From sequence record DRR723986_6929: a stretch of DNA of 64,000 nucleotides; one strand, given 5' to 3'. Position 1 is the first letter of the stretch. Every line of letters starts with the position of its first letter. This document shows positions 9,192 to 61,559 of the stretch, piece by piece. The notes below the pieces were generated by a model that worked only from the letters and a program-made list of their open reading frames with translations, had not been told where the DNA came from and did no database searches. Position numbers and translations under genes: made by a program.

Positions 9192-9280
9192 AAGAGCAAC
9201 GGCGAAACCGAATTGTATTCGACTAGGTTACGCCAAATTTGACACAGTACTGTTTGCTCGAATGCCTAGAGCAGCTTCTG

Positions 9281-9715: not shown

Positions 9716-9726
9716 GCATTTTTTCC

Positions 9727-9757
9727 TTGCTCCTACAGCAACTGTAGCATGTAGGTT
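9727..9757 (+). promoter_or_regulatory. MerR-type promoter/operator for CDF gene
   Basis: TTGCTC-19bp-TAGGTT with dyad CTACAG-CAA-CTGTAG. Confidence 0.8.
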
Positions 9758-9794
9758 CTGAGTTGTGAAACTAACAATGATTCGGAAATGACAA

Positions 9795-10445
9795 ATGTCT
9801 GACGACTGTGGCTGCAGCTCAACTCAAAATTTTGATGGTTCATCACCTGCTTATAAGCGCATCCTGATAATTATCATCGCAATCAATTTCGGTATGTTTG
9901 TGGTTGAACTTTTAGGCGGACTGTCGTCTGGCTCCATGGCTCTTCTGGCAGACTCGCTCGATTTTCTCGGTGACAGCGCGACCTATACAATTTCGTTAAT
10001 TGTCATTGGAATGCCAATCGCAACGCGGGCGAAAGCTGGTTTATTTAAAGGCCTGTCGCTTTTTATCATAGCGGCATGGGTGCTTGGAAGTACAATTTAC
10101 CGGGTATTTGTCGAAGGTGTGCCCGAGGCTTTGACTATGGGCGCAATTGGTTTTGCAGCCCTTGCCGCCAATGTGATCAGCGTGATTCTACTCCTGAAAT
10201 ATAAAGATGGAGACAGCAATGTACGCTCAGTCTGGCTTTGCAGCAGAAATGATGCGGTCGGCAATATTGCTGTGATACTCGCAGCTTCCGGGATTGCAGC
10301 TACAGATACAGCGTGGCCAGACCTTGCAGTTGCAGGCGTCATGGCGAGCTTGTTCATCCATTCTGCAACCAAAATTGTTCGGCAGTCGTGGAGTGAGCTT
10401 GAAGCTGAAAAGATACACCCGTCAACGACAACGAGCAAAAATTAA
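9795..10445 (+). CDS. Short cation diffusion facilitator (Cd/Zn/Co efflux)
   Basis: ALLADSLDFLGD, VRSVWLCSRND, N-terminal CGC. Confidence 0.85.
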   Translation: MSDDCGCSSTQNFDGSSPAYKRILIIIIAINFGMFVVELLGGLSSGSMALLADSLDFLGDSATYTISLIVIGMPIATRAKAGLFKGLSLFIIAAWVLGSTIYRVFVEGVPEALTMGAIGFAALAANVISVILLLKYKDGDSNVRSVWLCSRNDAVGNIAVILAASGIAATDTAWPDLAVAGVMASLFIHSATKIVRQSWSELEAEKIHPSTTTSKN

Positions 10446-42844: not shown

Positions 42845-43165
42845 ATGTTAGTGCCGCTCTCTACCAAAGTGACCGCAGAGTGCCGCGACGAGTTCACCGC
42901 ACTCGCCGAAGCGCAGAACACAAATCCGTCAGCCCTTGTTCGCTCGCTTATCAACCGCTACATCGACGGAGTTGATAATGCTGACACCACTCTCCTGCCC
43001 CTGATTCAAGCCAGTTTTGAAGATGTAACCCGCGCCCTCGTCCTGATCCGTTTCCTCGCTGAAGGCGTCGATAAGGACACAACCGACCTTCTCCTCGAGC
43101 GTACCGACGCCTATCTGGCCTCCCGCATCCCGTCAGCCGGCAGGCAAATTGACGGGAGCGTGTGA
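42845..43165 (+). CDS. Relaxosome accessory RHH protein (TrwA-like)
   Basis: LSTKVT beta strand plus two helices; first gene before T4CP. Confidence 0.55.
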   Translation: MLVPLSTKVTAECRDEFTALAEAQNTNPSALVRSLINRYIDGVDNADTTLLPLIQASFEDVTRALVLIRFLAEGVDKDTTDLLLERTDAYLASRIPSAGRQIDGSV

Positions 43166-45270
43166 TGGCGAACTTCTTCAACACGCCCCTGTCCACCTTC
43201 ATCCGCGGCGCGCAAACCACAATCCACGAATGGCAAATGATGCTGCAAAGCCTGAAGCAAACCGTACTCGCCGGGCTGATCATTGTCGCAATGCTCGCCG
43301 GCTGGCAAGTCTACACCAAAACGTCCGTGCATGACCGCTATGTGCTAGAGCGCTGGGTCACCGCAGGCGCTAAAGCCGCTTTTTTTGGCCCCGAAAGCGC
43401 TATCGACTTTGTCGACAAAAACGGCAAGACCTACAAGCTTTATACTGGCAAATATCTGCGCTCAACCATGGCAAAGAAGGTCTGGTTGAAGGCGGGCCGG
43501 GCGAGCCTGGTTGGGGTCAAAGTGGGCTCAGCTTTAAGTTCGCTCATTCTTCTGTTTGTGCTCCTGTTCTTTTACCTGAATGGCCGCCGCCAGGGCCGCG
43601 ACTTTCATGTGCGCGGCGCACAGCTCGGGACTACCGGTGATCTTGCGGGAGCACTCAAGAAAGTCGGCAAGCCCGGCACAATTTCGCTGGGAGGTATCCG
43701 GCTTCCTGCCGAGATGGAGCCCACCAATATCGCCATGATCGGGGCACCGCGCACCGGCAAGTCTGTTCAGATCAGCGCCATCCTCGAGGAAGTCCGGGCC
43801 GTCGGTCAGCGCGCGATTGTCTATGATTACGGCGGTCTCTTCACGCGGCATTTTTACCGCGAGGGGATCGACACCATCCTCAACCCGATGGATGAACGAT
43901 CTGCCGAATGGCGGCCCTGGTATGATGCATACGAGCCCGCCCATTTTGAACAGCAGGCGGTAAGCTTGATCCCGGACGATAAGTCCATGGAAGACTTTTG
44001 GCCGAAGGCAGCCCGCACCGTTTATGTAGCCCTCACTCGCAAGATTGCAGCAACGGTCGACAATCCCGATCTGAGCGATCTTCTCTTCTGGGGCCTGCAA
44101 CAAAACGCCAACGAGGTTGCAAAGTTTCTGGCGGGCACCGAGGCCACCAGTGCTTTCGGTCAGGATAAAACCGCAGCCTCTATCATGTCGCATCTGGCAA
44201 CCTACCTGAAAGCCTTCAACTATCTGCGAACCAGCGGTACGCCCTTCTCGATCCGCCAGTGGGTTGCCGGTGAAAGTGATGATAGCTGGCTGTTTATTGC
44301 CACCAACGAAGCGCACATTGACACAGTGCGTCCCCTGATTAGCTTATGGGTCGACATTGCGGTTTCGGCGATCCTGTCCTTGCCGGAAAATCTCAATCGA
44401 CGCATATGGTATGCCGTTGATGAACTGACCTCAATGCAGGCGGTTCCCTCGCTCGCCAAAGCTCTCACCCATGCGCCCAAATACGGTGGCTGCGGTCTGA
44501 TCGGCTATCAGTCGAAACCTATCCTTGAGAAGATTTATGATGACCGAACGGCCGCGGCACTTTCAGGTGGCTGCGCCATCCACTGTATTTTCCGGGCCAA
44601 CGATGTGGAAACAGCAGAATGGGCCGAACGGGCTCTGGGTAAAACCGAAGTGGCGGAAACCAATGAAGGCATCTCTTACGGTGTGACCCAGCTCCGCGAC
44701 GGGCGGACGGCCAACATCAACCGCACCCTCAGACCGCTGGTATTGGCGAGCGAAATACGCGCATTGGAGAAGTTCCAATATTTCCTGTCCATGGGTTCAG
44801 GCTTGCCGACAGTCCCGGTCCAGCTCAGCTACAAACCCCGCCCCGAAATCGCGGCTGCTTACATCCCTCACGTGTCGCAGCAACTGGTCATCGAACAGTC
44901 TGCAGAGCGGTTCCCGCCTGACACTATTGTGCCGCTCACCATTGAGCCCAATGACCCTCAAAGAAATCACCCAACCGCGCCGCGACAACCAGCAGGTCCG
45001 GCAGCAACCAGCGGCGAGTTGGCGCTTGAAGGTGGGTCCGGTAAAAAACCGCCAAAACAACATCTGCGCCGACGCCGTAGTCCCCAAAAAAGCCGCTCAA
45101 AGAGCAATACAGCCGCCAACCGACTGAACCGGTCGTCTGCCAACGGAAACAACAAAATCGAATTTGAACAGATTTTTGACCCAGCGGCGAAACCAGCCAA
45201 CGCCCCTCCCTCCAGCGCCCAACCTGCAAAAAAAGGTGAAGGCGGGCACCCAAAGCGCGAAGGGTCCTAA
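43162..45270 (+). CDS. traD: Type IV coupling protein (TraD/TrwB)
   Basis: Two TMs, GAPRTGKS, WYAVDEL, KYGGC. Confidence 0.9.
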   Translation: MMANFFNTPLSTFIRGAQTTIHEWQMMLQSLKQTVLAGLIIVAMLAGWQVYTKTSVHDRYVLERWVTAGAKAAFFGPESAIDFVDKNGKTYKLYTGKYLRSTMAKKVWLKAGRASLVGVKVGSALSSLILLFVLLFFYLNGRRQGRDFHVRGAQLGTTGDLAGALKKVGKPGTISLGGIRLPAEMEPTNIAMIGAPRTGKSVQISAILEEVRAVGQRAIVYDYGGLFTRHFYREGIDTILNPMDERSAEWRPWYDAYEPAHFEQQAVSLIPDDKSMEDFWPKAARTVYVALTRKIAATVDNPDLSDLLFWGLQQNANEVAKFLAGTEATSAFGQDKTAASIMSHLATYLKAFNYLRTSGTPFSIRQWVAGESDDSWLFIATNEAHIDTVRPLISLWVDIAVSAILSLPENLNRRIWYAVDELTSMQAVPSLAKALTHAPKYGGCGLIGYQSKPILEKIYDDRTAAALSGGCAIHCIFRANDVETAEWAERALGKTEVAETNEGISYGVTQLRDGRTANINRTLRPLVLASEIRALEKFQYFLSMGSGLPTVPVQLSYKPRPEIAAAYIPHVSQQLVIEQSAERFPPDTIVPLTIEPNDPQRNHPTAPRQPAGPAATSGELALEGGSGKKPPKQHLRRRRSPQKSRSKSNTAANRLNRSSANGNNKIEFEQIFDPAAKPANAPPSSAQPAKKGEGGHPKREGS

Positions 45271-45273
45271 GCG

Positions 45274-48168
45274 ATGCTATCCATGAGCCCCATCAAAGCC
45301 TCGCCGACCATTGCTACCCGCTATTATGTCAAAGGCGATTATTACACCAAAGGCGGAGACGAGCCCAGCGCCTGGGCGGGCTCGGGCGCTGCCGCACTCA
45401 GCCTTGAAGGCAAAATCGACGCCGATGATTTTAAGGCAATACTCGAAGGCAACTTGCCGAGCGGGCACCGGGCGGGATGGCGCGAGGCAAAGGCCGATCA
45501 TCATCCCGGTTGGGACCTAACCTTCAATGCCCCCAAAACTGTCAGCGTTCTGGCAGCACTCGGCGCTGACACCCGGCTTGTGAATGCGCATATGGAAGCT
45601 GTCGGGGACGCCCTCGGTTTTATGGAAAGCTATGCGCATGTGCGCGTACGAGCCGAAGACGGGACACTTCAACACCGCGCCACCGGTAACCTTGTGGCGG
45701 CACAGTTCACCGAGTTTTTCTCCCGCTCTCTCGATCCGCATCTGCACACCCACTGCCCGGTTGCCAACATGACGTATGACAAGGAACGCAGCGCCTGGTA
45801 TGCGCTCGACAGCTACCCGCTGTTTCGCATGAAGATGGCGGCCGGCCAGATTTACCGGAGTGCGCTTGCAGCAAGCGTCAAGGGACTGGGCTATGAAATC
45901 AATTCCGCCGCCGACACAGGCCTCTTTGATATCAAGGGCCTGCCCGACGAGCTCTTGAGTATCTTCTCGCAGCGCCGGGAGCAAATCGAAGACTATGCCA
46001 AGGAAAATGGCTGGGCGTCCGCTGCCGACTATGCCCTCGCGACACTTCTTACCCGACCAAACAAACAGATCACCAACCACCAGCAGGTCGTCGAGGATTT
46101 GGGCGAACGCGCCGGCCCGCATATGCAAAGCGTTTTTCGGCTGATTGAGCGCGCGCGCGAGCAAGCATCACCGCACAAACCGGATCCAAAACAAGCCATT
46201 GAGGCCATGCGGCACGGTCTGTATCATCTCTCGACCCGAGAAGCCGTCTTTGAACACGGCCACCTCCTCCTGGAAGCGCTCAAGGTCAGCGTCGGCGAGG
46301 TGACCGGGGATGATATTGAGAAGACACTGGTGGCCACAGAGGGCGCGGAAACCTACCATAGGACCGCGCTGCAGACTGGCGGCAGACGATTGTATCACGG
46401 ACGGACAATCGACCGATCGGTGGGCTGGGAACTGCGCCTGGCGGAGCAACTGCTCGAACACAGAGCCCGGGTTCGCCCCCTTGCGAGCCCGGATAAAATA
46501 ACAAATATTCTAAAATCCCGTTCGCTCACCGACGAGCAGGCAAAAGCGGCCAGCCATGTGCTGAGAACCCGCGACCGTATTGTCTCGGTGGTCGGTGTTG
46601 CAGGTGCTGGCAAATCCCATCTGGTCAAAAGTATCGTCGCCGCAACGCCGAGCCGGGACCATTTGGCGCTTGCGCCCACATCAACCGCCGCCATTGATCT
46701 AGGACGCAGTGCTGACATTAGAGCGCAAACACTGACGGGTTTTCTGCAAACCGGCGGCCATCATGTCTCCAGAAACTCGCTCCTGTTTGTCGACGAATCG
46801 TCCATGACCAGCACACGCCAGGCAAGCCGCCTGATGGATATTGCCCGAGAGAGGAAAATCCGCGTGATTATGATCGGCGACACCCGGCAGGCGGAAGCGA
46901 TTAATCAGGGTAAACCCTTCGCCCTGATGGTCAGGCAAGGCCTGCGCGGTCCCTTCATCATGAAAAGCTTCCGGCAAAAAAACACCAATATGCGCGAGCT
47001 CGTAGGCGCCGTTCGCAGCGGCAACATGCGGGCTGCCTTTACCATTCTTGGCAGGCGGCTTGTTTCATACGGTGCCGACGAGCTGGTGGCCAGGGTCGCC
47101 GACCACTGGATAGGTCACCCAAACCGAGACACGATACAGATAGCCGCTCTCGATAACGCCAGCAGGATTGCGCTCAACGCTGAGATACGCAGCCACCTGC
47201 AAGCTGAGGGCGTGATAGGAAAGGCGGAAAACGACTTTCATATTCTATCGTCAAAAGCACTGACACCGCACCAGCTGCGCTATCCAGACTATTATAAAAA
47301 AGGCGACGCGCTGGTTTTCCATAGTGGCAACAAAGCGCTCGGCATTGAGCGGGACAGCCGGTGGTATGTGGAAAAAACCAGCAAGCAGTCGGTCTTCCTG
47401 CTCGCCGCCGGATCGAAGATGCAACTGGCATTTAACCCTGCGAGAATCCGCAAAGACGGCATGACCCTCTATGATGTGCAGGAGCGCAGGCTTGCTATCG
47501 GTGACAAAATTCAATGGCGGCAGAATCTCAAAGGCGAAGAGGCTGTTAAAAATGGCCACACTGGCACCGTTGAAGGCCTTAAAGGCAAGCGTGCAACCAT
47601 CGCCTTCGACCACGGCGTAAAGCGTAACCTGGATCTGGCAAAGCACCCTTACTGGGATCATGGCTACGCCCTGACCGTTTACAAGCAGCAAGGCAAAACC
47701 ACACCGGTTAACTGGGTCATTGCCAATACCAGAAAAGCGGGTGAAATTACCCAGACATCCCTCTATGTAGCGCTCACCCGCGCCCAGCGGTCTGTGAAGA
47801 TTTTCACTGAAGACCGGGAGAAATTTCAGCGGGCGGTACAAATGAACCCGGGCGGCAAAACATCCGCTTTGGAGGGGCGCGGCGTCACCCCGAACTTGCA
47901 GGATGCTGAAAAACACCGCACGCCGTCAACCATCGAGTTGCTCGCCGACCGTCTGCCTGAAAACCTGCGCGCTAAAGTGCTCAATATCCTCGATTGGCGC
48001 GACGACCGGCGACGCGACCGAGAGGCTTACGAGCGTGATCCGCGGATCGAAGCAGCGGTCCATCTACACGCTGCACAAAGCAAAACCCAAGAACACGCGG
48101 GCCAAACACGCGCGGCTGATGCTGCCAAGGAAGCTGTCAAAGATATGGCAAGAGAGGCGTCACGGTGA
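45274..48168 (+). CDS. trwC: MOBF relaxase-helicase (TrwC/TraI)
   Basis: YY..DYY, DLTFNAPK, PHLHTH, GVAGAGKS, YVALTRA. Confidence 0.92.
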   Translation: MLSMSPIKASPTIATRYYVKGDYYTKGGDEPSAWAGSGAAALSLEGKIDADDFKAILEGNLPSGHRAGWREAKADHHPGWDLTFNAPKTVSVLAALGADTRLVNAHMEAVGDALGFMESYAHVRVRAEDGTLQHRATGNLVAAQFTEFFSRSLDPHLHTHCPVANMTYDKERSAWYALDSYPLFRMKMAAGQIYRSALAASVKGLGYEINSAADTGLFDIKGLPDELLSIFSQRREQIEDYAKENGWASAADYALATLLTRPNKQITNHQQVVEDLGERAGPHMQSVFRLIERAREQASPHKPDPKQAIEAMRHGLYHLSTREAVFEHGHLLLEALKVSVGEVTGDDIEKTLVATEGAETYHRTALQTGGRRLYHGRTIDRSVGWELRLAEQLLEHRARVRPLASPDKITNILKSRSLTDEQAKAASHVLRTRDRIVSVVGVAGAGKSHLVKSIVAATPSRDHLALAPTSTAAIDLGRSADIRAQTLTGFLQTGGHHVSRNSLLFVDESSMTSTRQASRLMDIARERKIRVIMIGDTRQAEAINQGKPFALMVRQGLRGPFIMKSFRQKNTNMRELVGAVRSGNMRAAFTILGRRLVSYGADELVARVADHWIGHPNRDTIQIAALDNASRIALNAEIRSHLQAEGVIGKAENDFHILSSKALTPHQLRYPDYYKKGDALVFHSGNKALGIERDSRWYVEKTSKQSVFLLAAGSKMQLAFNPARIRKDGMTLYDVQERRLAIGDKIQWRQNLKGEEAVKNGHTGTVEGLKGKRATIAFDHGVKRNLDLAKHPYWDHGYALTVYKQQGKTTPVNWVIANTRKAGEITQTSLYVALTRAQRSVKIFTEDREKFQRAVQMNPGGKTSALEGRGVTPNLQDAEKHRTPSTIELLADRLPENLRAKVLNILDWRDDRRRDREAYERDPRIEAAVHLHAAQSKTQEHAGQTRAADAAKEAVKDMAREASR

Positions 48169-49169: not shown

Positions 49170-50072
49170 ATGTCCCCCTTATCCAAATCCTTCCTCGCCG
49201 CTACCCTTTACCTAAGCAACGTTACAAATCTGGCGCTTGCGTCCGAAGGAGGCGCACAAGTAACATTTTTTGACGTTGGCAATGATATTTGCGCACTGGC
49301 TGAGACGCCGAGCGTCAGCGTTATCTATACCGATACGCTTGACCCCAAAGGGCTATGCTTCAAAAGCCTGACCGCGCATGGCGGCCAAGTGAGCAACCCT
49401 ATTTTGGTGAACCTGTCCGGGCAGACGGGCGATAGCAAAGCCTGGGATAAAGCCTTTAACCTTAGCCGTGTGGTCGATGTGAAAAGTGTCACTGAAGCTA
49501 TGGTTGATGAAGAGCTGACGCTCTTCGGGAACACCCGGCTTCTCACCGTGCCGCTCGCTAAATTGCACCAGAGGGGTACCGGTTTTATCAGCAAACTCAC
49601 TTTCGCTCATTTGAGCCTTTTGTTTGCCAGCAACAATGCCGGTGACGGCGCCTCTGACATCAATGCTGGCTGCGCGCAGTCCAGGCATGCCTACGACGCG
49701 GATACGGCTCACGATCTGGATTCAGACCTGATGCTTGTGCCAAACTCAGGCCGCGCACCCTTGCTTTCCCGCTGTTTTCTTGAGACCGTTTCGCCGCATT
49801 TTGCCGTATTCAGTGCCGGCAGTGGTCACAGCCTGCCTACAGCCAGCGTTGCCAACCATTATCTTCAGCTTGGCCTGCAGCGCTATAATATGCTGCGCAC
49901 CGACCGGGGCGACGATGAAAGTGGCGAAGAGTGGAAAGACGATCATACTGTTAGCGGTTGCATTGATAAGCCGGGCGACGACACCATCATTGCAACCCTC
50001 AGCCCGTCTGGATCACTTGCAGTGGCATATGCAACGCCGGAGCGGGCGTGCGGGGGCCCGTCAGATGGATAG
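49170..50072 (+). CDS. Exported ComEC-like MBL-fold protein with degenerate metal site
   Basis: VTFFDVG, AVFSAG..H.LP, LRTD; lacks HxDxDH and HHG. Confidence 0.55.
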   Translation: MSPLSKSFLAATLYLSNVTNLALASEGGAQVTFFDVGNDICALAETPSVSVIYTDTLDPKGLCFKSLTAHGGQVSNPILVNLSGQTGDSKAWDKAFNLSRVVDVKSVTEAMVDEELTLFGNTRLLTVPLAKLHQRGTGFISKLTFAHLSLLFASNNAGDGASDINAGCAQSRHAYDADTAHDLDSDLMLVPNSGRAPLLSRCFLETVSPHFAVFSAGSGHSLPTASVANHYLQLGLQRYNMLRTDRGDDESGEEWKDDHTVSGCIDKPGDDTIIATLSPSGSLAVAYATPERACGGPSDG

Positions 50073-50766
50073 AGCCGAGCGTGCTGCTTATATCCTGTGC
50101 AAACTCGGCGACGCCTATCTCTGGCAACCACGGATAAAATGGGCACAGCAAATCACGCCCGGCACAAACCTATATTTCCGTGTGGGGCGTGGGAGACGGA
50201 CGTGCCACAGCGTGCGCGGCGTTGCCCATAGCATCACGATTGGCACTGAGTGCTTGGCTGAGGCTATGCATAGCCTGCGCAGGGCGAGCAGTTGGCTCAG
50301 CTATGATGAAATCAAGCAAAGAGGGTATTTTAACCATCGTATCCGCCCCGCAGAATTGATGGTACACACCCTTTGTCATGAGTATGGGCACTTTGTTCAG
50401 TCCGTCTTGGGGCGCCGCGCGCCCGGCCAGCAACATGACGATGTGTTTTATGCCATTCTTGACCGCATTCACAGCGGCGGCCATGCAGGCGCGCTTTTGA
50501 ACCAATTCCAAAAACAATGTCAAACTGCAGGCCTATCCCTCGCCTTTGAAGACACAACACGCAACCTCATTCAGGGGAGGATCGGCGAGCGCATTCTTGC
50601 GCGAACTGCCAATCACATTCTCACCGGGCGAGTGATCAAACGAAACAGGAAATCAGTGACGGTTAGCATCACCCACCGGGGAGGTCAGCACAAAATCAGG
50701 GTCAGCCGCTGCCTAATCGAGCCAGACAGTGGCAGCACGCCCTTAGAGCAATCTGAGTGGCATTGA
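50065..50766 (+). CDS. Zincin (SprT-like) metalloprotein
   Basis: HTLCHEYGH..QHDDVF. Confidence 0.6.
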   Translation: MDRAERAAYILCKLGDAYLWQPRIKWAQQITPGTNLYFRVGRGRRTCHSVRGVAHSITIGTECLAEAMHSLRRASSWLSYDEIKQRGYFNHRIRPAELMVHTLCHEYGHFVQSVLGRRAPGQQHDDVFYAILDRIHSGGHAGALLNQFQKQCQTAGLSLAFEDTTRNLIQGRIGERILARTANHILTGRVIKRNRKSVTVSITHRGGQHKIRVSRCLIEPDSGSTPLEQSEWH

Positions 50767-50774
50767 AATTATAT

Positions 50775-51107
50775 CTAATCTTCGGTCGCAAGCTTGATTT
50801 GATCGCGCATCCGCTTGACTTCCCGCGGTGGGAGCTTTTTCAACATGGTGACAATTTCAAAGATAAGCGCGTGGGTCTCAGGTGATCGGTCATCACCGTC
50901 CACACCGTCAAACAGCTCGGAAACAGGATAGTCCAGCGCCATACAGAGCTCTTCCAGCATATCGAGCGCCGCGCCTGTAAGGCCGCGTTCAAGTTCGGAA
51001 ATAGTATCATGCGAGCGGTCCATGCTTTGCGCCAGCTGCTCTTGCGTAAGCTTGCGCTCGGTTCGCAATACTTTGATCCGACTACCAATTTTCGATTTCA
51101 AATCCAT
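50775..51107 (-). CDS. XRE-family regulator
   Basis: LTQEQLA..ISELERG. Confidence 0.85.
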   Translation of the reverse strand: MDLKSKIGSRIKVLRTERKLTQEQLAQSMDRSHDTISELERGLTGAALDMLEELCMALDYPVSELFDGVDGDDRSPETHALIFEIVTMLKKLPPREVKRMRDQIKLATED

Positions 51108-51222
51108 GAGAGATTTGTACTGGTATTCGCAATCTCTTTACATAGGATTAATCCCGATTATAATATATTATTCGGCTTATTACCGATTTATGTTCATAAC
51201 TTCACCAGTTACCATATATACA

Positions 51223-51651
51223 ATGGAAGAGTTGAGATTGGCGGGCACCAAAGGACATCAGAAAAATAACAATGTTCAGGGCGAAACAAGGATTAGTCCC
51301 GACCCTATAGATATCTATGTCGGGCTACGTGTTCGCGAAAGACGCAAGGTACTCAGCATGTCCCAGTCTTCACTTGGCGGCATAGTTGGTGTTACGTTTC
51401 AGCAAATACAAAAATATGAGCGCGGTACAAACAGGATAGGCTCAAGCAGATTGTTCCGCCTCGCAAACGCGCTCGACGTTCCCGTTTCTTACTTTTTTGA
51501 AGGCGCTGCAAATCACCTGCAAGAACCAATGGAGTCGAACTCATCGCTCTACGACCTAAAAGAAACACAAGAATTAATCGGTGTATATTATGGAATCCAG
51601 GATACTTTTGTCCGGCAGAAGGTGATGAAAGTTATTGAACTGTTGGGCTAG
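51223..51651 (+). CDS. XRE-family regulator
   Basis: VGVTFQQIQKYERGTNRI. Confidence 0.85.
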   Translation: MEELRLAGTKGHQKNNNVQGETRISPDPIDIYVGLRVRERRKVLSMSQSSLGGIVGVTFQQIQKYERGTNRIGSSRLFRLANALDVPVSYFFEGAANHLQEPMESNSSLYDLKETQELIGVYYGIQDTFVRQKVMKVIELLG

Positions 51652-51958: not shown

Positions 51959-53131
51959 TCATAGCCCTGGGTAGTATGTCTCAAGTAAGTTTCTTGTCAG
52001 CTGTTCGCCGCGAAGAGAAATTCTATCTACATCTTTTTCACTCATGGGATTAAAGTCCGTGGGATAATCGAAAGTCTCTTTACGTGGAACTAAATCGGGG
52101 GGCGGGCATGGGAGACTCTCATCTTGTTGGCCCAGGTATGGCAGAACAAATCCTTTGATCTCGCCCGCCCTTGCAAGCCTGTGCAGCAAATCAAATGACA
52201 TGGAGTGCGTCCGCCGATGAGTTGTGGATACTGTCGCTAGCATACGGGAATCCCAGTGGTAGGGGATTTGGGAGGCGTCTGGAAGTCCTTGCCCAGCCAC
52301 ACAACAGATAATAAAATCGACATCTGAGACGTTGGCGCTGAATTTAGCGTCGCGTCCAGGTAGCAAACAACTTATCCCAAGATTGTCGTATACGCCGCCA
52401 TCCGTAATAACTGTGCGATGTGAGGTTGTTTTGCCATGTTTTGAGAAGAGTTGGAATTCGTCGAATGCCGGCAAAAATACAGGGAATGCCGCTGATGCCG
52501 CTACAGCTTTGGCGACAGAAACTGGTTCCACAAGCTTCCCGAAACGCCATGATCCGCATTCTTTTGTACCATACCGAAAAGCAGTTCCTGTTCTTAGTTC
52601 AGTTGCATTAATCACGACTTCGAGATTGCGTCGCTTAACTTCTGGAATCAACTTCTTATGAAAAACGATCTCATTCAAATACTTGGCGAAGGCCGTCGTT
52701 CTGCTTGCATACCTTGGCAATGGCGCCTGCATTGCAAGAGTGGCTTTTTTGATGAGAGCGCTCTTGATACCTAACAATCCCAACAATGCAAAAAACACTG
52801 AAAGTAATTTCCCTGCCAACGCCAGCACGCCCGATGTCAAAATAGTACCAACTATCTTCGGTGTTTCAGAAGAATACAAAGTTTTTTGCGCTATACCGAT
52901 AAGCAGACCTTTTTTTAAAAGTGCTTCGGTTCGTTTTTCGAACTGATCAAAGGGTTCGTCAAAATATGCATAAAGTGCGGCAATTACGCTTCCACCAGAA
53001 ATTGAAGAGATTAGATTTACGCGGTCAAGGACTCCCTGATCATGCAGCGCTCTCATACACCCCAAGTGGAATGCAATAGCACGTGCCCCACCACCTGAAA
53101 GAGCCAATCCAATTTTAAGTTTCCTTGCCAC
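51959..53131 (-). CDS. Patatin-like phospholipase
   Basis: LSGGGARA, SISGG, ASAAFP, DGGVYDN; GTG start 1 nt after upstream stop. Confidence 0.9.
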   Translation of the reverse strand: MARKLKIGLALSGGGARAIAFHLGCMRALHDQGVLDRVNLISSISGGSVIAALYAYFDEPFDQFEKRTEALLKKGLLIGIAQKTLYSSETPKIVGTILTSGVLALAGKLLSVFFALLGLLGIKSALIKKATLAMQAPLPRYASRTTAFAKYLNEIVFHKKLIPEVKRRNLEVVINATELRTGTAFRYGTKECGSWRFGKLVEPVSVAKAVAASAAFPVFLPAFDEFQLFSKHGKTTSHRTVITDGGVYDNLGISCLLPGRDAKFSANVSDVDFIICCVAGQGLPDASQIPYHWDSRMLATVSTTHRRTHSMSFDLLHRLARAGEIKGFVLPYLGQQDESLPCPPPDLVPRKETFDYPTDFNPMSEKDVDRISLRGEQLTRNLLETYYPGL

Positions 53132-53132
53132 T

Positions 53133-55418
53133 TTACTCTTCCGATTCCTCGACACTAACCTCGCGAAATGTAAATTCTTTTCGACGAAATAGATAGTATT
53201 TCCAAACGGGTTTCGTTGCAGCATAACCAATAATCAGCATCACGACATGCCTCGGCGTGCTCTCTTGAAAATGAAGAATGTTTAGCATGGCACCAAGATC
53301 GACTTGGCTCGGTCTCGGAGGAGAAACTGGGTGTGTATGCCAGACTCCAACAAATCCAGACGAACCTTGTGTTTTTATTTTATGATGTTTTGATATTTCT
53401 GCAGTGCCTACCATTCCACACTCAAACAGTTCTGGGCTTTTCAAACTATCCGGTGGTGGCCCGCTTGCAGCATCGATCCAAATCCTTTCGATACTGTCGT
53501 CTATGGTACCAAAAAGTAGCCCACCAGTTTCATTTAGTTCACTGCCCGTTCTTCTATTTCGTGCAATTTCGCTATTGATACTAACAATTGCGCTGGGGGC
53601 AGTCAGAGCACTATAGCGATACCTAACTTCTTTAAGGCGCTTTACTGCGCCGACGGTGAAGGAAAAACTTGTGTCGCAATCTTTTGCACTAGAATACGGT
53701 GGCATGGAAACAAAGTCTGCGCTCGCTTCATTTTGCTTTAATTCTGACATTCGCACCAAGGAAATATTTAGGAGAGCTGAAGAATAAAAGGCCACATCGG
53801 AAGCCGACGCAATGAATGTTGGTTCAGAACAACCCGGTTCTGGCTGAAACAGGTTAAAGTTTTTTGAGGGCGGCCAAAAATCTTTGACAAAATGGGCCGC
53901 GCCTTCAGACTGAAGCGCTGCGATTTTCGCGCGCCGTCCGATGTCGATTGGACCACCGACAAACTTTGGCATTCGCACAGTTAACATTCCATTCTTGGCC
54001 TTTGCGCTAATCGAAAAAGACGCAATTGGCGGTGCGTTTTTTGTTTTGGAAAGCTCTTTTTCGAGTATGCTTGAAACCGTTCGTGACGCTGTGGCATCTA
54101 TAATAAAATCATACTCATCTGGTGCAAATGCATCCAACACACCGCGATGTAAGCTTTTGAATTCAGGAATAATTTCTGTTCCAAGAGCTAGTTCATCCAG
54201 CCGGAGTTTGAGGGCGCTCACCTTGGTATAGCCGATGCTATGGTCACGAAATAACTGCCGAACTAAAATGCCTGGACTAACCGTGTCATTGTCGACAAGG
54301 ACTAATTTACTTGCCCCAGCCCGTACAATGTATTCTGCCAAGAACGAACCAAGAGCTCCGCAGCCAAGCAATAGAATTCGTTTACCTTGTAGCCAGCTCG
54401 CGCCAGTATCGACGTCGCGTCGAATTGTTGTTTCATTTCTATTTTCGAATATTCGGCACCATTCAGTTTTAGCAGTAGCCGCCCATGCAATAAATTTTTT
54501 CCTTGATTTTGCAGCGTCTTCCGGACTGGAAAGGGCTTCGAATGTAGACCGCAAATCTGCCGCAGAATCTGCTGAAATTCGCCACGAAGCTAAATGCTGA
54601 TTTAGCTGCCCACCTGGTTCAACCCTGCGCATTGGCGCACCGATTATCACGAAAAGATCTTTGGCCTCTTTTAAGAAAAGAGCGTACAGACGTACAAGGC
54701 GGTAGAGCAGAGAAAATGGCATTCCTCTCTCCTCAAATTCGGTTATTAGTTTGAAAACCGTATCAGGATATTCCATTGGTAGCGGTTGGTTCAGAAGGAT
54801 TGCAATCCCACACTGAACGTCTGGTGGTAGTTCCTGGTAAAGTTCGGTCCAGCCTGTCAATTCAAAACAGTGTTGGTTCTTTTGAACTAGATGCGCTGCG
54901 CCCACCCAACTGATTTCACCTTTGGCAATATCTGGTGCATTGGCACTTGCAACAATTTTGAAATCCGAACTTGTGTATGCGATGGGCGGGTGAAGTGGAG
55001 CATTATCTGGGTCCAACTCCCCCAATGCCGCTCGGCCAAACCATTCATTTAGCCGTTGAACAAAACCATACATTCCATCCGAGGCTACCCATTCGATTTC
55101 GGACGATTGATAAAGGCAGATACTTTTACCCCACTGAACGTGAGGGAAGCCAGCAAAGCGAGAATGCGCAAAGTGTACTAAGGGTGGGGTGAGTGGAAAG
55201 TTAGGTGGCAAGTAAACCAATAGAGGCTCGCGCGCGTTAAACCGAAACCCTTTTCTCGCTCTTTTCAAATGCCCTGTTCCAACTGAGAGTCTAACTGTTA
55301 AGTATCCACTTTCATCGGCAGGGGGCTGCGAACTCACAATATCTAGGTCGCCGCCAGAGGCTTTAGAAATCTCCGTTATCTGTTCAAACGCAAGACGTTG
55401 ACCATCCGAGCATTTCAC
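53133..55418 (-). CDS. E2-E1(ThiF)-JAB fusion (Cap2/Cap3-like)
   Basis: E2 FPHV..ICLY; E1 GCGALGS, IIDATA, EPGCSEPTF; JAB ETGG..WHTHP..PSQVD. Confidence 0.9.
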   Translation of the reverse strand: MKCSDGQRLAFEQITEISKASGGDLDIVSSQPPADESGYLTVRLSVGTGHLKRARKGFRFNAREPLLVYLPPNFPLTPPLVHFAHSRFAGFPHVQWGKSICLYQSSEIEWVASDGMYGFVQRLNEWFGRAALGELDPDNAPLHPPIAYTSSDFKIVASANAPDIAKGEISWVGAAHLVQKNQHCFELTGWTELYQELPPDVQCGIAILLNQPLPMEYPDTVFKLITEFEERGMPFSLLYRLVRLYALFLKEAKDLFVIIGAPMRRVEPGGQLNQHLASWRISADSAADLRSTFEALSSPEDAAKSRKKFIAWAATAKTEWCRIFENRNETTIRRDVDTGASWLQGKRILLLGCGALGSFLAEYIVRAGASKLVLVDNDTVSPGILVRQLFRDHSIGYTKVSALKLRLDELALGTEIIPEFKSLHRGVLDAFAPDEYDFIIDATASRTVSSILEKELSKTKNAPPIASFSISAKAKNGMLTVRMPKFVGGPIDIGRRAKIAALQSEGAAHFVKDFWPPSKNFNLFQPEPGCSEPTFIASASDVAFYSSALLNISLVRMSELKQNEASADFVSMPPYSSAKDCDTSFSFTVGAVKRLKEVRYRYSALTAPSAIVSINSEIARNRRTGSELNETGGLLFGTIDDSIERIWIDAASGPPPDSLKSPELFECGMVGTAEISKHHKIKTQGSSGFVGVWHTHPVSPPRPSQVDLGAMLNILHFQESTPRHVVMLIIGYAATKPVWKYYLFRRKEFTFREVSVEESEE

Positions 55419-56560
55419 TGGCCAAAGCCGACTTTTTCGCTGGGCGGTTCGTCCGAACCACGTGATGCCGCGACAGCTGCTGCAATCTTGTCGACTGAAA
55501 CGTCGGCAGCAGCTTCTTCACCAACAAATGTGATTCCGTTTTCATCAACGTCAAAAACTAGTGGTTCGCTATCTTGACTATTCTCATGCGTACATAAGAA
55601 TTGACCCTCAGCGACTTCTTCGTAACGCCGCTTGGCTTTTGCATGCGGGGGGTTGTCGCCTTTTTTATTCTGGGCAGGTACTGCCTCACTGCTAGAAACA
55701 ATGCAACCTGCGCCAACCTGAAACTCCGCTAGGTCGTCCAACATATCCTGTTTTAACACCTCCGAACCATCTTCGTCCTGGTACATTGCCGATTTGCTAC
55801 AATGGTGGGGCGCCAAGAAAATCTTCCACGCAAGAAACTGCTCGTTTCCGGCCTCTTTAGTGAAATCGAAAATTTTTCGTATACGCGGATACGCTATGTC
55901 GCCAAAAAGCAATGCACCACCGGCGCTTGGATCATCGCCCAGCACCACCTGCATCGCGAGGCTGGTATTATTCCTATCCCCATCGCCCTCGTCCTTAAAC
56001 GGAGCATGAATAAAGGCGTTAAACTCTCCGTCGTGATCTTCACCATCAAGTTCCGTGATCGAATTTCCGGGAATTGTGAGTTTGTCTTCGGGAAACCCGT
56101 TAAACTCATCCTCTTCGAGAATACTATCGTGGCCGATCACGCGTACCTTGTCGCCTGAGTCCACTGTGCCATCTTGGTCTATCATTGCTTTGATCCGTCG
56201 TTCGGCTTCTTCTTTGAAAGCTATAGCGTCATCACAAAGATCAATATCAGATTCGAGAAAAACTCTAGGCGTGAACCAAAGTTCACCAATCATCACTCGA
56301 TCAAGGAGATCAGCAAATCCAAGGATATGATCTTGATCTGGATGAGTTAGTGCAAAGCCAGCCAAATAGGGATTTCCATCTATTTCAGGCAGCTCTTCAA
56401 CAAGCTTATCAACTAGAGAAACATGATCATCACCTGCATCGTCTGACTTGCTCAAGTCACGGAGGTCAACCTGCAAAACAACTCCATCTTTTATTACAAC
56501 TGATGTACTGTCTCCGGTGCCAACGGGCCAAAATAGAAACTGCGGGTGTTCAAACATCAT
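55415..56560 (-). CDS. ComEC-like metallo-beta-lactamase-fold hydrolase
   Basis: VGTGDS, THPDQDH, FGD, PHHCS; tail KVGFGQ. Confidence 0.85.
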   Translation of the reverse strand: MMFEHPQFLFWPVGTGDSTSVVIKDGVVLQVDLRDLSKSDDAGDDHVSLVDKLVEELPEIDGNPYLAGFALTHPDQDHILGFADLLDRVMIGELWFTPRVFLESDIDLCDDAIAFKEEAERRIKAMIDQDGTVDSGDKVRVIGHDSILEEDEFNGFPEDKLTIPGNSITELDGEDHDGEFNAFIHAPFKDEGDGDRNNTSLAMQVVLGDDPSAGGALLFGDIAYPRIRKIFDFTKEAGNEQFLAWKIFLAPHHCSKSAMYQDEDGSEVLKQDMLDDLAEFQVGAGCIVSSSEAVPAQNKKGDNPPHAKAKRRYEEVAEGQFLCTHENSQDSEPLVFDVDENGITFVGEEAAADVSVDKIAAAVAASRGSDEPPSEKVGFGQ

Positions 56561-57159
56561 AAATTCCTCATTACAGTTTACGCCATCGAAGCCTTCATGC
56601 CGTTTGGCATTGGTTTCACAACTCCAATAAACAAAGAGGCTAGAGCAGTTATATGGGTTGATAATAAAAGATGTGGGGTTAAGTAGCAAGGATTCGTCGG
56701 AATCTAACAACAAATGAAGTCACAGAGAGAATTCAAATTTTTTGGTGTTCGCAAAAGCTCAAGGCAGGTGACCATGGTAGGTTTTCATAAGTAAGCCAAG
56801 TTTCGTAAGACATCTTTTACCCGTTCCCCAAAACGACAATGTTGCTCTATTTTTCATTGCTGTAAATTTTAAAAGACGAGCGGAGCGAGGGCAACAGGTT
56901 GAATACTTTTATGCATTAGTGTTGCCGAAAATAGTTCCGCTGTTTCCGAATAATTCAGAAAATCTATATTGATTTCATTGTCCGACCACATAATTTTAAT
57001 CTACCGTTTCGACCGCGCCGCGCCGATAGTAAATTGTGTTGCTTAGAACTTAACCCAAGCCCATTTGCTGAAAACGAAACCTGTTGGAGACAATTTTTAT
57101 GTTAACCCAAATTCAGAACCCTCTCAAATTATCTCGCCGTGTAACCTATATGAACACCG

Positions 57160-57993
57160 CTAAAAATTTACTCCAGGCAAAGTACGCAGATCATCAAGGG
57201 ATACTTCGCAGGCATCAATATCTGCTTTCGGCAAGCACCCGAATGAATAACCAAACATGCTCTCTTGGAAAAACAAGTATGCCGTTGTTTTGTTGCCGTC
57301 ATACATGACTTTAAAAAGAGCGTCCGGAACGGCAATCTCCAGTCCTCCGTTTTGAATACGTTTCGGGCTTTCACTCAAAAATAGATTACCAGCTATAACC
57401 TGGAAAGCCGCTCCTTGATCAACCTCTCCTCTTGTCCTGGTTTCTAGGTCATACCATGCTCCGCCTTGGCTGTTGAAATGGGGCAACTGAGGGCTCATAT
57501 TGGTCATATAATTAATTTCAAAAACGGTGCAGGCGTCATCAATGTCTTCAATCGGCAAGCCGGGCTTATCTTCAAACTCTGCATCCAGTCCGTCGCCGTC
57601 TCGGTCACCACCAGAAACAAAGAAGGGAGCAATGTGGCCACGATGGTAGCCGCTATTCGTATAGTCACTGGTTACCACGCGCTGGCCTTCAGGGACGCTA
57701 GGGTCAGGGCGAAATCGAGACCATTTTCCAGTTCTTTTAGGTGTGTCCCTAAAATCCGGCTCAACACGCCATGCGACCCAGTTTGGTACCAACTTGTCTG
57801 AATTGAAATTAAATGCGTAAGGCCGATGAACAATAACGCTACCCGATGGTGAAAATGGGCCCAGGTGTTGCTTTGAAAGTGCCGCCTGCTCGCTAACGCT
57901 CAAGACTGGGCAATCTTGAGAATTTGCCGCTTGGCAAAAGCCCAAGGCTAATAAAGAAAATGAAATACCTATTGGCCGTATTCTTTTAAACAT
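57160..57993 (-). CDS. Exported DNA/RNA non-specific endonuclease (NucA-like)
   Basis: Signal peptide, YHRGHIAP, NMSPQ..FN..W..LE. Confidence 0.9.
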   Translation of the reverse strand: MFKRIRPIGISFSLLALGFCQAANSQDCPVLSVSEQAALSKQHLGPFSPSGSVIVHRPYAFNFNSDKLVPNWVAWRVEPDFRDTPKRTGKWSRFRPDPSVPEGQRVVTSDYTNSGYHRGHIAPFFVSGGDRDGDGLDAEFEDKPGLPIEDIDDACTVFEINYMTNMSPQLPHFNSQGGAWYDLETRTRGEVDQGAAFQVIAGNLFLSESPKRIQNGGLEIAVPDALFKVMYDGNKTTAYLFFQESMFGYSFGCLPKADIDACEVSLDDLRTLPGVNF

Positions 57994-58103: not shown

Positions 58104-59213
58104 ATGTCTAGAAATATAATAATTTGCTGTGATGGTACAGGTAATGAGATAGAAGCAGACCTTTCGAATGTCCTTAAACTCTATCAAATTGCTGATCGCA
58201 ATGATGGTCAGATTATTTTTTATGATTCTGGTGTGGGCACTATTGGTCGCCAGAACGGCTGGACCAAGTTCAGAGATAAAATAAAAGAAACAGTCACTGG
58301 CGCTACAGGGCAAGGGTTGGACCAAAATGTCCTTGATGCCTATAAGTTTCTCGCCAAAATCTACCAAGATGGTGACAAGATATTTCTCTTTGGGTTTAGT
58401 CGCGGAGCATATACAGCGCGCGTATTAGCCGGTTTTATTAGAGCCTTAGGCCTATTACACCCTGAGCAAATGAACTTGGCGAATTACGCCCTAAAATGGT
58501 ATAAACAGATTTCCATTACTGGTAATTTTGAAAATATCGGGCGCTTTTCGGAAGTGACAAGAGCACGAGATGTTACCATACACTTTCTGGGTGTGTGGGA
58601 TACAGTGAGTTCGGTCTTTCGACCTAGCGGCAAGCTGTTCTCATTAGGCCTCACCAGTAAAAAGTATCCGTTCACGTTGAACAATGATGCAATCAAAATT
58701 GTCCGTCATGCTGTTGCCATAGATGAAAAACGACGTGTCTTTCCCGCTGATTTGTGGGGTCCTACCCGGAAGTTTAAATCCCATCGGTTCGATAAAACAG
58801 CTGAAGTCCAGGATGTTAAAGAAGTTTGGTTTGCTGGTGTACATAGTGATATTGGTGGAGGTTACCCTGAAGCTGAGAGTGGCCTCGCGAAGCTGCCTTT
58901 GAAGTGGATGGTAGTTGAGGCTGTCTCCGCAGGCTTAGAAATATCGAAGCGACGCTACAACAGATTGGTGCTCGGGACCTCCAGTAGTCGCAGTAAAAGA
59001 GTATATATGGCACCCGACCCGCATGGGATGCAACACAACTCATTTAAGCTTCCAACTAGTGCTTTCGGCTCTCGACTAAGGGTTATTCCTGAAAATACAA
59101 TGGTTCATGAGTCTGTAAAAACAAGACTGGGTGAAAACAAAAACGATTACAATCCAAAAAATCTCAACACGGATCAAGTCGAGTGGGAGTCGGACATAGA
59201 CTTGACTGGCTAA
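58104..59213 (+). CDS. DUF2235 (Tle1-like) alpha/beta hydrolase
   Basis: CCDGTGN, GFSRG, GVWDTV, WFAGVHSDIGG. Confidence 0.9.
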   Translation: MSRNIIICCDGTGNEIEADLSNVLKLYQIADRNDGQIIFYDSGVGTIGRQNGWTKFRDKIKETVTGATGQGLDQNVLDAYKFLAKIYQDGDKIFLFGFSRGAYTARVLAGFIRALGLLHPEQMNLANYALKWYKQISITGNFENIGRFSEVTRARDVTIHFLGVWDTVSSVFRPSGKLFSLGLTSKKYPFTLNNDAIKIVRHAVAIDEKRRVFPADLWGPTRKFKSHRFDKTAEVQDVKEVWFAGVHSDIGGGYPEAESGLAKLPLKWMVVEAVSAGLEISKRRYNRLVLGTSSSRSKRVYMAPDPHGMQHNSFKLPTSAFGSRLRVIPENTMVHESVKTRLGENKNDYNPKNLNTDQVEWESDIDLTG

Positions 59214-59525: not shown

Positions 59526-59672
59526 ATGGCTGCAAAAAAAGATGTCGTTCAGGTAAAAAACCCTCGAACAGGGCGCTATGTTAAGATTGACCGCGCCCAA
59601 GGTAAAATCGTGACATCTAAGAAATCGCCAGGACCTTACAAAAATATCCCGGTAGCCCGTAAGAAAAAATGA
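59526..59672 (+). CDS. 48-aa basic protein missed by ORF track
   Basis: MAAKKDVVQVKNPRTGRYVKIDRAQGKIVTSKKSPGPYKNIPVARKKK; ATGA overlap with next gene. Confidence 0.7.
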   Translation: MAAKKDVVQVKNPRTGRYVKIDRAQGKIVTSKKSPGPYKNIPVARKKK

Positions 59673-60319
59673 TTATTTACAATCCAACGGATGGGCTTTC
59701 ACTTCAGGGGAATGTCGATTATCAGCCTCGTCACTGCTTCCTTATGACACGATTGGGAGCCCCAATTCATCCCGAAGTTCAGGCCGTTCGAGAATGTGTT
59801 ACGCACCTTTCAGACAATTTGGATTACGGCGTAATTGATGCGAGTGCGCGAGTAACAGGCCGGGACTTGCTGATTAAGATTTGGAAATTAATAGCCGCAA
59901 CTCCGGTCTCAATTGGTGTAGTGCATAGCGAAATCCCGGCGAAAACGCAGGCGAATATTTATTACGAACTTGGGATAGCCCAGGCTTTAGGAAAAGAAAC
60001 TTTAATTATTAAATGTCCAAACTCAGAGATACCCTCCGACTTTGTCAGAACTGAATATGTGAGTTTCGACGATAATTTTGATGAACAATTTAATCGCTAT
60101 ATGGAAGGTTTGGTTGATCAAGCGTATTCCTATGAAACGATAGCAGATCAGTTAGATCGTAATCCTGTTTTGGCAATTGACTATCTTAAAAGAGCATATT
60201 TGATCACCGGTGACGAAAACATGAAGAACAAAGCACGCCAGTTGCTAGTTGAAGCAGGGCTGGAAAATCGAGCAAAAAACAGTGTTGAATTATTGGCTGC
60301 TTCTTTCGCCGCTGAATAG
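59669..60319 (+). CDS. Nucleoside deoxyribosyltransferase/TIR-like domain protein
   Basis: CFLM, NIYYELGIAQALGKETLII, IPSD. Confidence 0.65.
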   Translation: MIIYNPTDGLSLQGNVDYQPRHCFLMTRLGAPIHPEVQAVRECVTHLSDNLDYGVIDASARVTGRDLLIKIWKLIAATPVSIGVVHSEIPAKTQANIYYELGIAQALGKETLIIKCPNSEIPSDFVRTEYVSFDDNFDEQFNRYMEGLVDQAYSYETIADQLDRNPVLAIDYLKRAYLITGDENMKNKARQLLVEAGLENRAKNSVELLAASFAAE

Positions 60320-60457: not shown

Positions 60458-61204
60458 TTATATTAAGTTATCATCTGAGTTTAAACGTGGATCGCCAAAA
60501 TCACTCGCGAGGAATTCTAAAGACGCTTTTGGAAAATCGCGTACAGCAATCACACGGTCCTGGCGTGTATAGATGTTCCAGGATTGTCTCTGGTTCGAGC
60601 CTTTTGCCGCAAACGCTATTAATGACAGTACGTTCATATTGCTTCCGGCCTGAGGGCACCTCACTGAGCGACTAATAATGACATCCACTTCAACTTGCCG
60701 AGCAGCATCAGCAAGTGCCTGAGTTGCTGAATAATCTGACTTGTCGCTATATCGTGGATCATCTCCGAAAGGCGGTTTCGTGATATCCAGCGCTCTATCG
60801 GTTTCGATAGACGCTTGAAATGCCGTATGTTCACAAAGTGCTTCAGGATATATAACACCTTCAGCCTGATTGAAGAACAATAGCCTATAAAATGCTATTT
60901 CTGCCATAGCTGTATGAAGATCGCGCGAACTATAAAATACGCCTTCCCGTTGGCTCGCGCGCCTAAACCGCGATCCGTATGGGTACGGAAAATACCGGTA
61001 AGGTGTGGCAATAAGATAATCGAAGCCTGCCGCTTCCTCTGGGAAACTCGGTTTTACAGCCTCTAGCATATCCTCAAGGATTTCTTGATCTTCAAGGCTC
61101 CCTGCCAGTTTCATCGTTGAAGAGTTATATTGTCCTTCTACAACTCGCCAAACATTGCCCTTAAACCGAGTTAAGCTAGATTTTAGCTCTGTAAGTATCG
61201 ACAT
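60458..61204 (-). CDS. RES-domain toxin
   Basis: WRVVE, GSRF..GVFY, AEIAFY, SVR. Confidence 0.9.
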   Translation of the reverse strand: MSILTELKSSLTRFKGNVWRVVEGQYNSSTMKLAGSLEDQEILEDMLEAVKPSFPEEAAGFDYLIATPYRYFPYPYGSRFRRASQREGVFYSSRDLHTAMAEIAFYRLLFFNQAEGVIYPEALCEHTAFQASIETDRALDITKPPFGDDPRYSDKSDYSATQALADAARQVEVDVIISRSVRCPQAGSNMNVLSLIAFAAKGSNQRQSWNIYTRQDRVIAVRDFPKASLEFLASDFGDPRLNSDDNLI

Positions 61205-61559
61205 ACGCTACTGTATCGACTAGGCCTTTTATGCTCTTTATGAGTTCAATCGGTGTCTTCCTCAATACCTTATTGGGCACCCGAAGCCAGCTCCGACTGG
61301 TCCGATCATCACCGCCAGAAATCGCGTCGATACCGCGAAACAAACGCACAAATTCAAGGCCTAGTTCAAACTCCTTTTTATTCGACCGCAAGGTATAGCT
61401 CCCGCTATTCATCCTGCTGATCGTCGCCATTGACAAACCCAAGACTTCAGAAAGCTCGGACGCCTTGATATTTAGGTGGCCAGCAGCTCTACAAACAGCA
61501 TCGGTTAAGACCTGTTCCTGCTTAGTTGCTGAGACCTCAGTTTTCTCGTTCTGTTTCAT
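61176..61559 (-). CDS. Xre/MbcA/ParS antitoxin
   Basis: LGLSMATISR HTH; WL..PN..L..TP. Confidence 0.9.
   Translation of the reverse strand: MKQNEKTEVSATKQEQVLTDAVCRAAGHLNIKASELSEVLGLSMATISRMNSGSYTLRSNKKEFELGLEFVRLFRGIDAISGGDDRTSRSWLRVPNKVLRKTPIELIKSIKGLVDTVAYVDTYRAKI

Follow-up and report, generated by a model that had tools for sequence, protein, structure and literature searches.

In type II systems of cyclic-oligonucleotide-based signalling against phages (CBASS), the protein Cap2 adenylates and conjugates the C-terminus of the system's own nucleotidyltransferase, the CD-NTase. The 6A-MBL system runs the same machine on a different enzyme, a protein of the metallo-beta-lactamase (MBL) fold. 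Its operons are type 6a of Iyer, Burroughs and Aravind (2006), where they are described as 'usually with two genes' (PMC1779556), and the word 'patatin' occurs 0 times there. A review that cites van den Berg 2024 names 6A-MBL as an anti-phage system validated in Pseudomonas aeruginosa (PMC13276650), and a further paper counts it among the known jumbo-phage defences (10.1101/2025.09.30.679545).

Here, we examine three genes at positions 51,959 to 56,560 of a 64,000-nucleotide (nt) stretch of sequence record DRR723986_6929, the whole of which we call the window. They encode an MBL-fold protein, a single chain that joins E2, E1 and JAB domains (Cap2_3), and a patatin. We read them, with a probability of roughly 0.7, as an anti-phage operon of three genes that falls in the 6A-MBL family, in its patatin-linked clade, and lies in a cargo island of a conjugative element, in DNA of low guanine-plus-cytosine (GC) content. 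The core of the operon is already known as 6A-MBL; its third component is outside the curated definitions that we checked.

The 6A-MBL core and its third gene

Reading the open reading frames (ORFs) of the window gives three coupled genes on the minus strand, with the MBL gene leading, Cap2_3 following and the patatin gene last. The GTG start codon of Cap2_3 overlaps the TGA stop codon of the MBL gene as GTGA, and the GTG of the patatin gene is separated from the TAA of Cap2_3 by 1 base, both as stated in the original prediction. A GAGGA stands 5 nt 5' of the ATG of the MBL gene, and the GTG start of the patatin gene agrees with the aligned N-termini of 23 homologues. Comparing the three products with curated family models, homologue alignments and predicted structures, we arrived at the following description of the components:

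(i) The MBL-fold protein passes the NCBIfam model NF058524, '6A-MBL system MBL-fold protein', at 280.8 bits against a cut-off of 220, and matches no Pfam family. In its AlphaFold model (predicted local distance difference test, pLDDT, 86.9 overall), the nearest solved fold is the beta-lactamase-like domain of ComEC (9ic4; Foldseek E 3.2e-14, template-modelling score 0.73 on the target), followed by the phosphorylcholine esterase Pce, ElaC-type proteins and RNase J; ComEC is likewise the top match of a sequence profile search. Columns H73, D75, D77, H78, D221, H252 and H253 are invariant in the homologue alignment. By the likeness of its modelled fold, the protein would be a phosphodiesterase, probably a nuclease.

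(ii) Cap2_3 passes NF058523, '6A-MBL system cap2_3 protein', over residues 56-729 with 365.7 bits (cut-off 320). The PADLOC models E1-E2 (276.8 bits) and JAB (70.6 bits) agree with the proposed E2-E1-JAB reading, and Pfam recognizes Prok-E2_A (83.1 bits), ThiF (70.0 bits) and Prok-JAB (36.7 bits) along the same chain. The nearest solved relative of the E1 part is Cap2 (7to3; E 3.5e-17). Cys101 of the E2-like domain is invariant in 20 sequences, as are G352-G357 (GCGALG), D376, D437 and Cys530 among the E1 columns and E630, H694, H696, S704 and D707 in the JAMM motif of the JAB domain.

(iii) The patatin matches Pfam Patatin (PF01734) at 67.1 bits against a cut-off of 27.7, and G13-G14-G15-x-R17 (GGGxR), Ser45 and Asp244-Gly-Gly (D244-G246) are invariant columns in 24 sequences. 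A structure search with its model (pLDDT 87.7) finds patatin, PlpD and, among CBASS lipases, CapE and CapV, whereas on the NCBIfam model for CBASS lipases (NF041079, CBASS_lipase; cut-off 200) the protein reaches only 16.4 bits; the patatin passes no NCBIfam model for a third 6A-MBL component. Helices 89-119 and 124-134 have lower pLDDT and take in a hydrophobic insert whose best 19-residue Kyte-Doolittle mean is 2.33 in the window protein and at least 1.6 in 18 of 23 members of the clade. We propose that this protein is the effector phospholipase of the operon.

The catalytic motifs of the E2, E1, JAMM, MBL and patatin domains are thus intact, as the original prediction had stated, with the expected residues invariant in the alignments, and the earlier description of the genes held in each detail that we checked; the catalytic roles of these residues are ones that we take from family knowledge. 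With both core proteins above their curated cut-offs, the proposed 6A-MBL-type assignment stood up, and we regard the 6A-MBL identity of the operon as very probable.

Pfam scans of the ORFs of at least 100 amino acids (aa) over 49.7-64 kb returned neither a nucleotidyltransferase nor a beta-grasp protein, and the operon is self-contained, with no conserved gene for a cyclase or for a ubiquitin-like protein (Ubl). The description 'without Ubl' therefore holds for the genes scanned, but it is only formally true, since the MBL protein has a glycine-ended tail of its own. Residues 350-381 are disordered in the model (pLDDT <50), and the tail of the window protein finishes on VGFG followed by a single Q. 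The homologues share ends of the form ARGS..PP...VG[F/Y]G, followed by 0-5 unconserved residues, with no extra residue in many of them; the MBL tails of the canonical 6A-MBL clade (eight examined) end at a Gly or within 6 residues after it. The variable residues after the terminal Gly suggest trimming by the JAB domain. By analogy with the CD-NTase tail of type II CBASS, a comparison for which we also draw on PMC11601596, we propose that the tail of the MBL protein accounts for the missing Ubl.

Patatin linkage and the exchangeable slot

A locus search with the single protein gave only 1 full-length relative, and an alignment-based search was used instead. Searching with an alignment of Cap2_3 homologues, we retrieved 80 loci from species-representative genomes, the nearest relatives of the window's Cap2_3, which come from many phyla and are 34-51% identical to the window protein over the best segment. 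A patatin homologue is encoded by a separate gene directly downstream of Cap2_3 in 47 of the 80, fused onto Cap2_3 at its C-terminus in 23 and located elsewhere in the locus in 3. Directly downstream or fused, the patatin is thus present in 70 of 80 related loci, and the suggested check by synteny bore out its co-conservation. The fusions consist of a full Cap2_3, a linker of ~15-25 residues and a full patatin. An MBL homologue stands directly upstream of Cap2_3 in 72 of the 80; of the other eight, four have a weak or truncated one, in two its place falls beyond the contig end, and in two none was found.

The same linkage emerges from the patatin side, where a search at E <= 1e-30 gave 199 clusters at 50% identity. 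Among the best 150 of the cluster representatives, 51 also contain a Cap2_3 segment within the chain, and every one of the 49 that are 480 aa or longer is among them. Two actinobacterial plasmids with 32-33% Cap2_3 identity have a patatin annotated directly downstream, and a third has an unannotated patatin ORF in the same place. Given the co-conservation and the fusion counts, we consider the patatin an integral component of the system and not a chance neighbour. No other neighbour is conserved: when the ORFs of at least 100 aa from 81 loci were clustered all against all, the largest real extra cluster was integrase-like and covered 7 loci.

Several loci depart from the common layout. Of the three with the patatin elsewhere, L044 (1216-8298) carries two tandem systems in the order Cap2_3, patatin, MBL, Cap2_3; in L053 (8282-10782) the patatin is split by an IS110-family transposase (8926-9963); and in L059 the patatin lies 1.2 kb downstream. 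Among the seven patatin-less loci, L087 and L088 have <260 bp of downstream flank, too little to judge, and L052, L054, L074 and L091 have other ORFs downstream or ORFs without a Pfam family. In L089 (2315-5791), a calcineurin-like phosphoesterase (Metallophos, 32 bits) takes the place of the patatin at the C-terminus of the E2-E1-JAB chain, amounting to an exchange of effectors inside the patatin-linked clade. L052, L087 and L088 form a planctomycete subclade with Cap2_3 and no patatin; upstream of Cap2_3, L052 gives a weak MBL match (126 bits) and the other two give none.

In an even sample of the phylum, Cap2_3 exceeds the cut-off in 9 of 401 genomes, and among close relatives in 1 of 61. 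Eight of the nine phylum-sample matches score 435-673 bits, against 366 bits for the window's Cap2_3, and belong to the canonical clade; no match to the patatin profile was found within the 1.5-kb flanks of those eight loci. The ninth, at 339 bits, is window-like and has the full three-gene form. A FastTree phylogeny sets 83 patatin-linked rows, as a clade with support 100, apart from the 8 canonical rows, with at least four changes of the fused state within the patatin-linked clade. As judged by sequence, patatin linkage marks out a clade that is large, clearly set apart and found in many phyla. Cap2_3 is identical in three Sulfitobacter records and Chachezhania antarctica (L017, L018, L019 and L027), and in the tree one Acidobacteriota row falls among those of the Rhodocyclales; both point to recent horizontal transfer.

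The canonical clade was examined further in 42 loci around L099. A distant patatin occurs in 14 of them, directly downstream in 11, as a fourth gene in 1 and upstream in 2. Three of the 42 hold a gene of 264 aa of no known family. Genes of about this length without a Pfam family follow Cap2_3 or a second MBL-like ORF in L099 (656-1450), L108 (6253-7047), L125 (7355-8245) and L132 (7531-8361); in L099 and L108 the gene overlaps the stop codon of Cap2_3. An ORF of ~290 aa is found in about 10 of the 42; of two that were scanned, one gave a sub-threshold MBL match and the other no Pfam match. In the phylum sample, the position after Cap2_3 holds a second MBL-fold gene (one passing the Pfam cut-off, two just below it), Endonuclease_NS or ORFs without a Pfam family. 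Taken together, the slot after Cap2_3 behaves as an exchangeable effector position would.

The original prediction of a three-gene variant with an added patatin was therefore right about the third gene, which is real; the arrangement is not singular, being that of a large clade in which the patatin is often fused, and a distant patatin recurs even in the canonical loci.

Genomic setting, proposed mechanism and alternatives

The operon lies inside a low-GC stretch that follows a TrwC-type relaxase-helicase, an order that marks it as cargo of a conjugative element. The features of the operon and its surroundings are collected in Table 1. The promoter-like site is weak evidence, as the promoter scan found 14 sites in the window against 8.9 expected, and scans of the window for promoters, terminators and repeats gave none above chance.

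Table 1. Features of the operon and of the adjoining DNA, in window coordinates
Feature	Position	Strand	Details
MBL-fold protein gene	55415..56560	-	ATG at 56560, TGA at 55415-55417; 381 aa
MBL C-terminal tail, residues ~350-381	55418..55513	-	ends ...ARGSDEPPSEKVGFG-Q; proposed Ubl-like handle
Cap2_3 gene (E2-E1-JAB)	53133..55418	-	GTG at 55418, TAA at 53133-53135; 761 aa
E2-like domain, residues ~30-155	54954..55331	-	Pfam Prok-E2_A 30-155; Cys101
E1 adenylation domain, residues ~338-540	53799..54407	-	Pfam ThiF 343-453; GCGALG 352-357, Cys530
JAB/JAMM peptidase domain, residues ~614-748	53175..53579	-	Pfam Prok-JAB 627-731; PADLOC JAB 625-748
Patatin gene	51959..53131	-	GTG at 53131, TGA at 51959-51961; 390 aa
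Hydrophobic helical insert of patatin, residues ~88-120	52772..52870	-	candidate membrane anchor or lid
Promoter-like site	56661..56689	-	TTGCTA-17-TATTAT, 9/12 positions, ~100 nt upstream of MBL start; pattern match only
Low-GC stretch	~50.5-62.5 kb		GC 0.42-0.50, against ~0.56-0.59 on both sides
TrwC-type relaxase-helicase	45274-48168		964 aa; TrwC 264 bits, AAA_30; precedes the low-GC stretch
ORF preceding the relaxase-helicase	within 43162-48168, with the relaxase-helicase		702 aa
XRE-family helix-turn-helix gene	50775-51107	-	overlaps the next ORF (region 49735-51651)
XRE-family helix-turn-helix gene	51022-51651	+	overlaps the preceding ORF (region 49735-51651)
DNA/RNA non-specific endonuclease (Endonuclease_NS)	57160-57993	-	hydrophobic N-terminus
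Tle1-like phospholipase	58104-59213	+	278 bits; adjoins the Endonuclease_NS gene
ORF without Pfam or NCBIfam family	59669-60319		216 aa; faint PADLOC PDC-S35 match, 14.1 bits
RES toxin and Xre/MbcA/ParS-type antitoxin	60458-61559	-	overlapping pair; RES 87.5 bits

None of the other island genes is co-conserved with the operon in the related loci. Beside the two XRE genes, which lie downstream of the operon, a further ORF contains an HEYGH motif and gives SprT/WLM matches below the cut-off (19.3 bits). We considered these XRE genes and the SprT/WLM-like HExxH ORF as a regulator pair of the CapH/CapP type and do not claim them as such; they are convergent to or outside the operon, are not co-conserved with it and do not have the usual CapH/CapP layout. 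The Endonuclease_NS and Tle1-like neighbours were likewise discarded as parts of the system, each recurring in only 1 related locus.

We infer the biochemical steps, the trigger, the acceptor and the switching of the lipase in the scheme that follows. The MBL protein, a ComEC-like phosphodiesterase, would carry a disordered tail with a terminal Gly plus one residue (Q), and the JAB domain would trim this tail to expose the Gly. The E1 domain would then adenylate the Gly, which would be passed via Cys530 and the E2 Cys101 to a lysine of a target, as Cap2 does with CD-NTases. The JAB domain may also reverse the conjugation, keeping the system quiet in uninfected cells until infection shifts the balance towards conjugation and the nuclease-like MBL protein and the patatin become active. 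The patatin, which has the hydrophobic helix and is fused to the ligase in a third of the relatives, would be held at the ligase, and damage to nucleic acid and membrane would abort the infection.

That the lipase is controlled through a protein complex or by conjugation, and not by a diffusible nucleotide, we rate as close to an even bet that falls just short of one. Somewhat more tentatively, the patatin-linked clade may be a distinct, widespread defence family in which the E1-E2-JAB machine gates a membrane phospholipase, by conjugation or by assembly of MBL protein, ligase and lipase, without a nucleotide second messenger. A complex prediction for Cap2_3 residues 160-761 with the patatin gave a score of 0.00 without controls and has no bearing either way.

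Several observations weigh against reading the three genes as a patatin-linked operon with a protein-gated lipase. No patatin homologue was found in 7 of the 80 related loci. In 8 of the 42 canonical-clade loci, including Pseudomonadaceae and Stutzerimonas records, no ORF of at least 100 aa lies directly downstream of Cap2_3, which indicates that the core can probably work without the lipase. Neither the MBL nor the patatin alignment has an invariant lysine, so that no fixed acceptor site is visible in either protein. The separation of the clades comes from FastTree only, with long-branch warnings. The resemblance of the patatin fold to the nucleotide-activated CapV and CapE leaves room for a ligand-gated lipase, and SMODS (PF18144), although found in none of 5 carrier genomes (4 of them with the patatin), was sought in a set to which the window's own genome does not belong.

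These points feed into three other explanations. The MBL protein, once conjugated and primed, could make or process a diffusible nucleotide-type product that activates the patatin in place of a CD-NTase, or a cyclase elsewhere in the genome could feed the patatin. The layout, which mirrors type II CBASS with a patatin effector, and the likeness of the patatin model to the cyclic-nucleotide-activated CapE and CapV would fit such a relay, as would the statement in PMC11601596 that MBL pathways conjugate 'their respective signaling enzymes'. We nonetheless think it unlikely: the MBL protein is nearest to the ComEC nuclease domain and to hydrolases, not to any synthase; the patatin falls far below the cut-off of the CBASS_lipase model; and the repeated fusion of patatin to Cap2_3 would be needless for a diffusible signal. 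The operon itself has no cyclic-nucleotide synthase, as was originally described, and the SMODS searches also speak against this route.

It is improbable, in our judgement, that the patatin kills as a second module of its own, merely sharing the promoter and escaping regulation by conjugation. The third slot does vary, and the canonical loci without an adjacent ORF of at least 100 aa after Cap2_3 would suit two parallel effectors, but a phospholipase whose Ser-Asp dyad is intact would be toxic if left unregulated, the 1-nt gap makes for tight translational coupling, and the patatin family is tied to Cap2_3 both by position and by the fusions among its best representatives. We give least credence to a role apart from phage defence, whether serving the conjugative element in conflict or maintenance (for example, addiction or exclusion of rivals) or in housekeeping protein modification. 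Such a role would suit a cargo region that adjoins the TrwC relaxase and holds the RES-Xre pair, the Tle1-like lipase and the non-specific endonuclease; against it, the equivalog models that both core proteins pass bear the name of an anti-phage system, the patchy distribution and the horizontal spread, with identical proteins across genera, are typical of defence genes, and the other island genes are not co-conserved with the operon.

A three-gene anti-phage operon thus remains our preferred reading, and the patatin-linked clade adds to the 6A-MBL machine a clear read-out enzyme, joined to the ligase in a third of the relatives. The clade is suited to asking what conjugation does to a downstream effector without a second messenger. 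If the lipase is gated by protein, sensing would be linked to membrane killing by a relay made of proteins alone.

Comparison with described systems

The window operon shares with 6A-MBL the order of an MBL-fold gene followed by a single-chain E2-E1-JAB gene, both products pass the curated cut-offs, and the MBL tail is Gly-ended in the canonical clade and in the window clade alike. The 2006 description and NCBIfam give 6A-MBL as a two-gene system, unlike the window operon with its coupled, co-conserved patatin. We do not treat two-gene composition as a defining feature of 6A-MBL, as a third of the canonical loci examined (14 of 42) hold a patatin; the window clade differs from the canonical one in that the patatin is nearly fixed and often fused. 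Our literature search, which covered main texts and few subscription journals, found no relevant paper joining patatin with Cap2, JAB or MBL. Annotation by the current definitions, which list two genes, overlooks a component that most relatives of the patatin-linked clade possess.

With type II CBASS, the window operon shares an E2-E1 unit and a JAB domain homologous to Cap2 and Cap3, and in both systems the substrate enzyme, a CD-NTase in CBASS and, as we propose, the MBL protein in the window, has a flexible C-terminal tail. Where CapV or CapE is the CBASS effector, a patatin-fold lipase occupies the effector position in both. The differences are equally clear: Cap2 and Cap3 are separate proteins in type II CBASS and one fused chain in the window; a CD-NTase is found neither in the window operon nor in the 80 related loci or the 5 carrier genomes; and the window patatin, unlike the CBASS lipases, does not pass the CBASS_lipase model and has a hydrophobic insert.

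Bil and Bub use the same E1, E2 and JAB chemistry for anti-phage protein conjugation (PMC11601596). Both encode a separate Ubl, whereas across the 81 clustered loci nothing of at least 100 aa is conserved next to the three genes. In the window operon, we propose, the role that Bil and Bub give to a separate Ubl is taken by the tail of the MBL protein.

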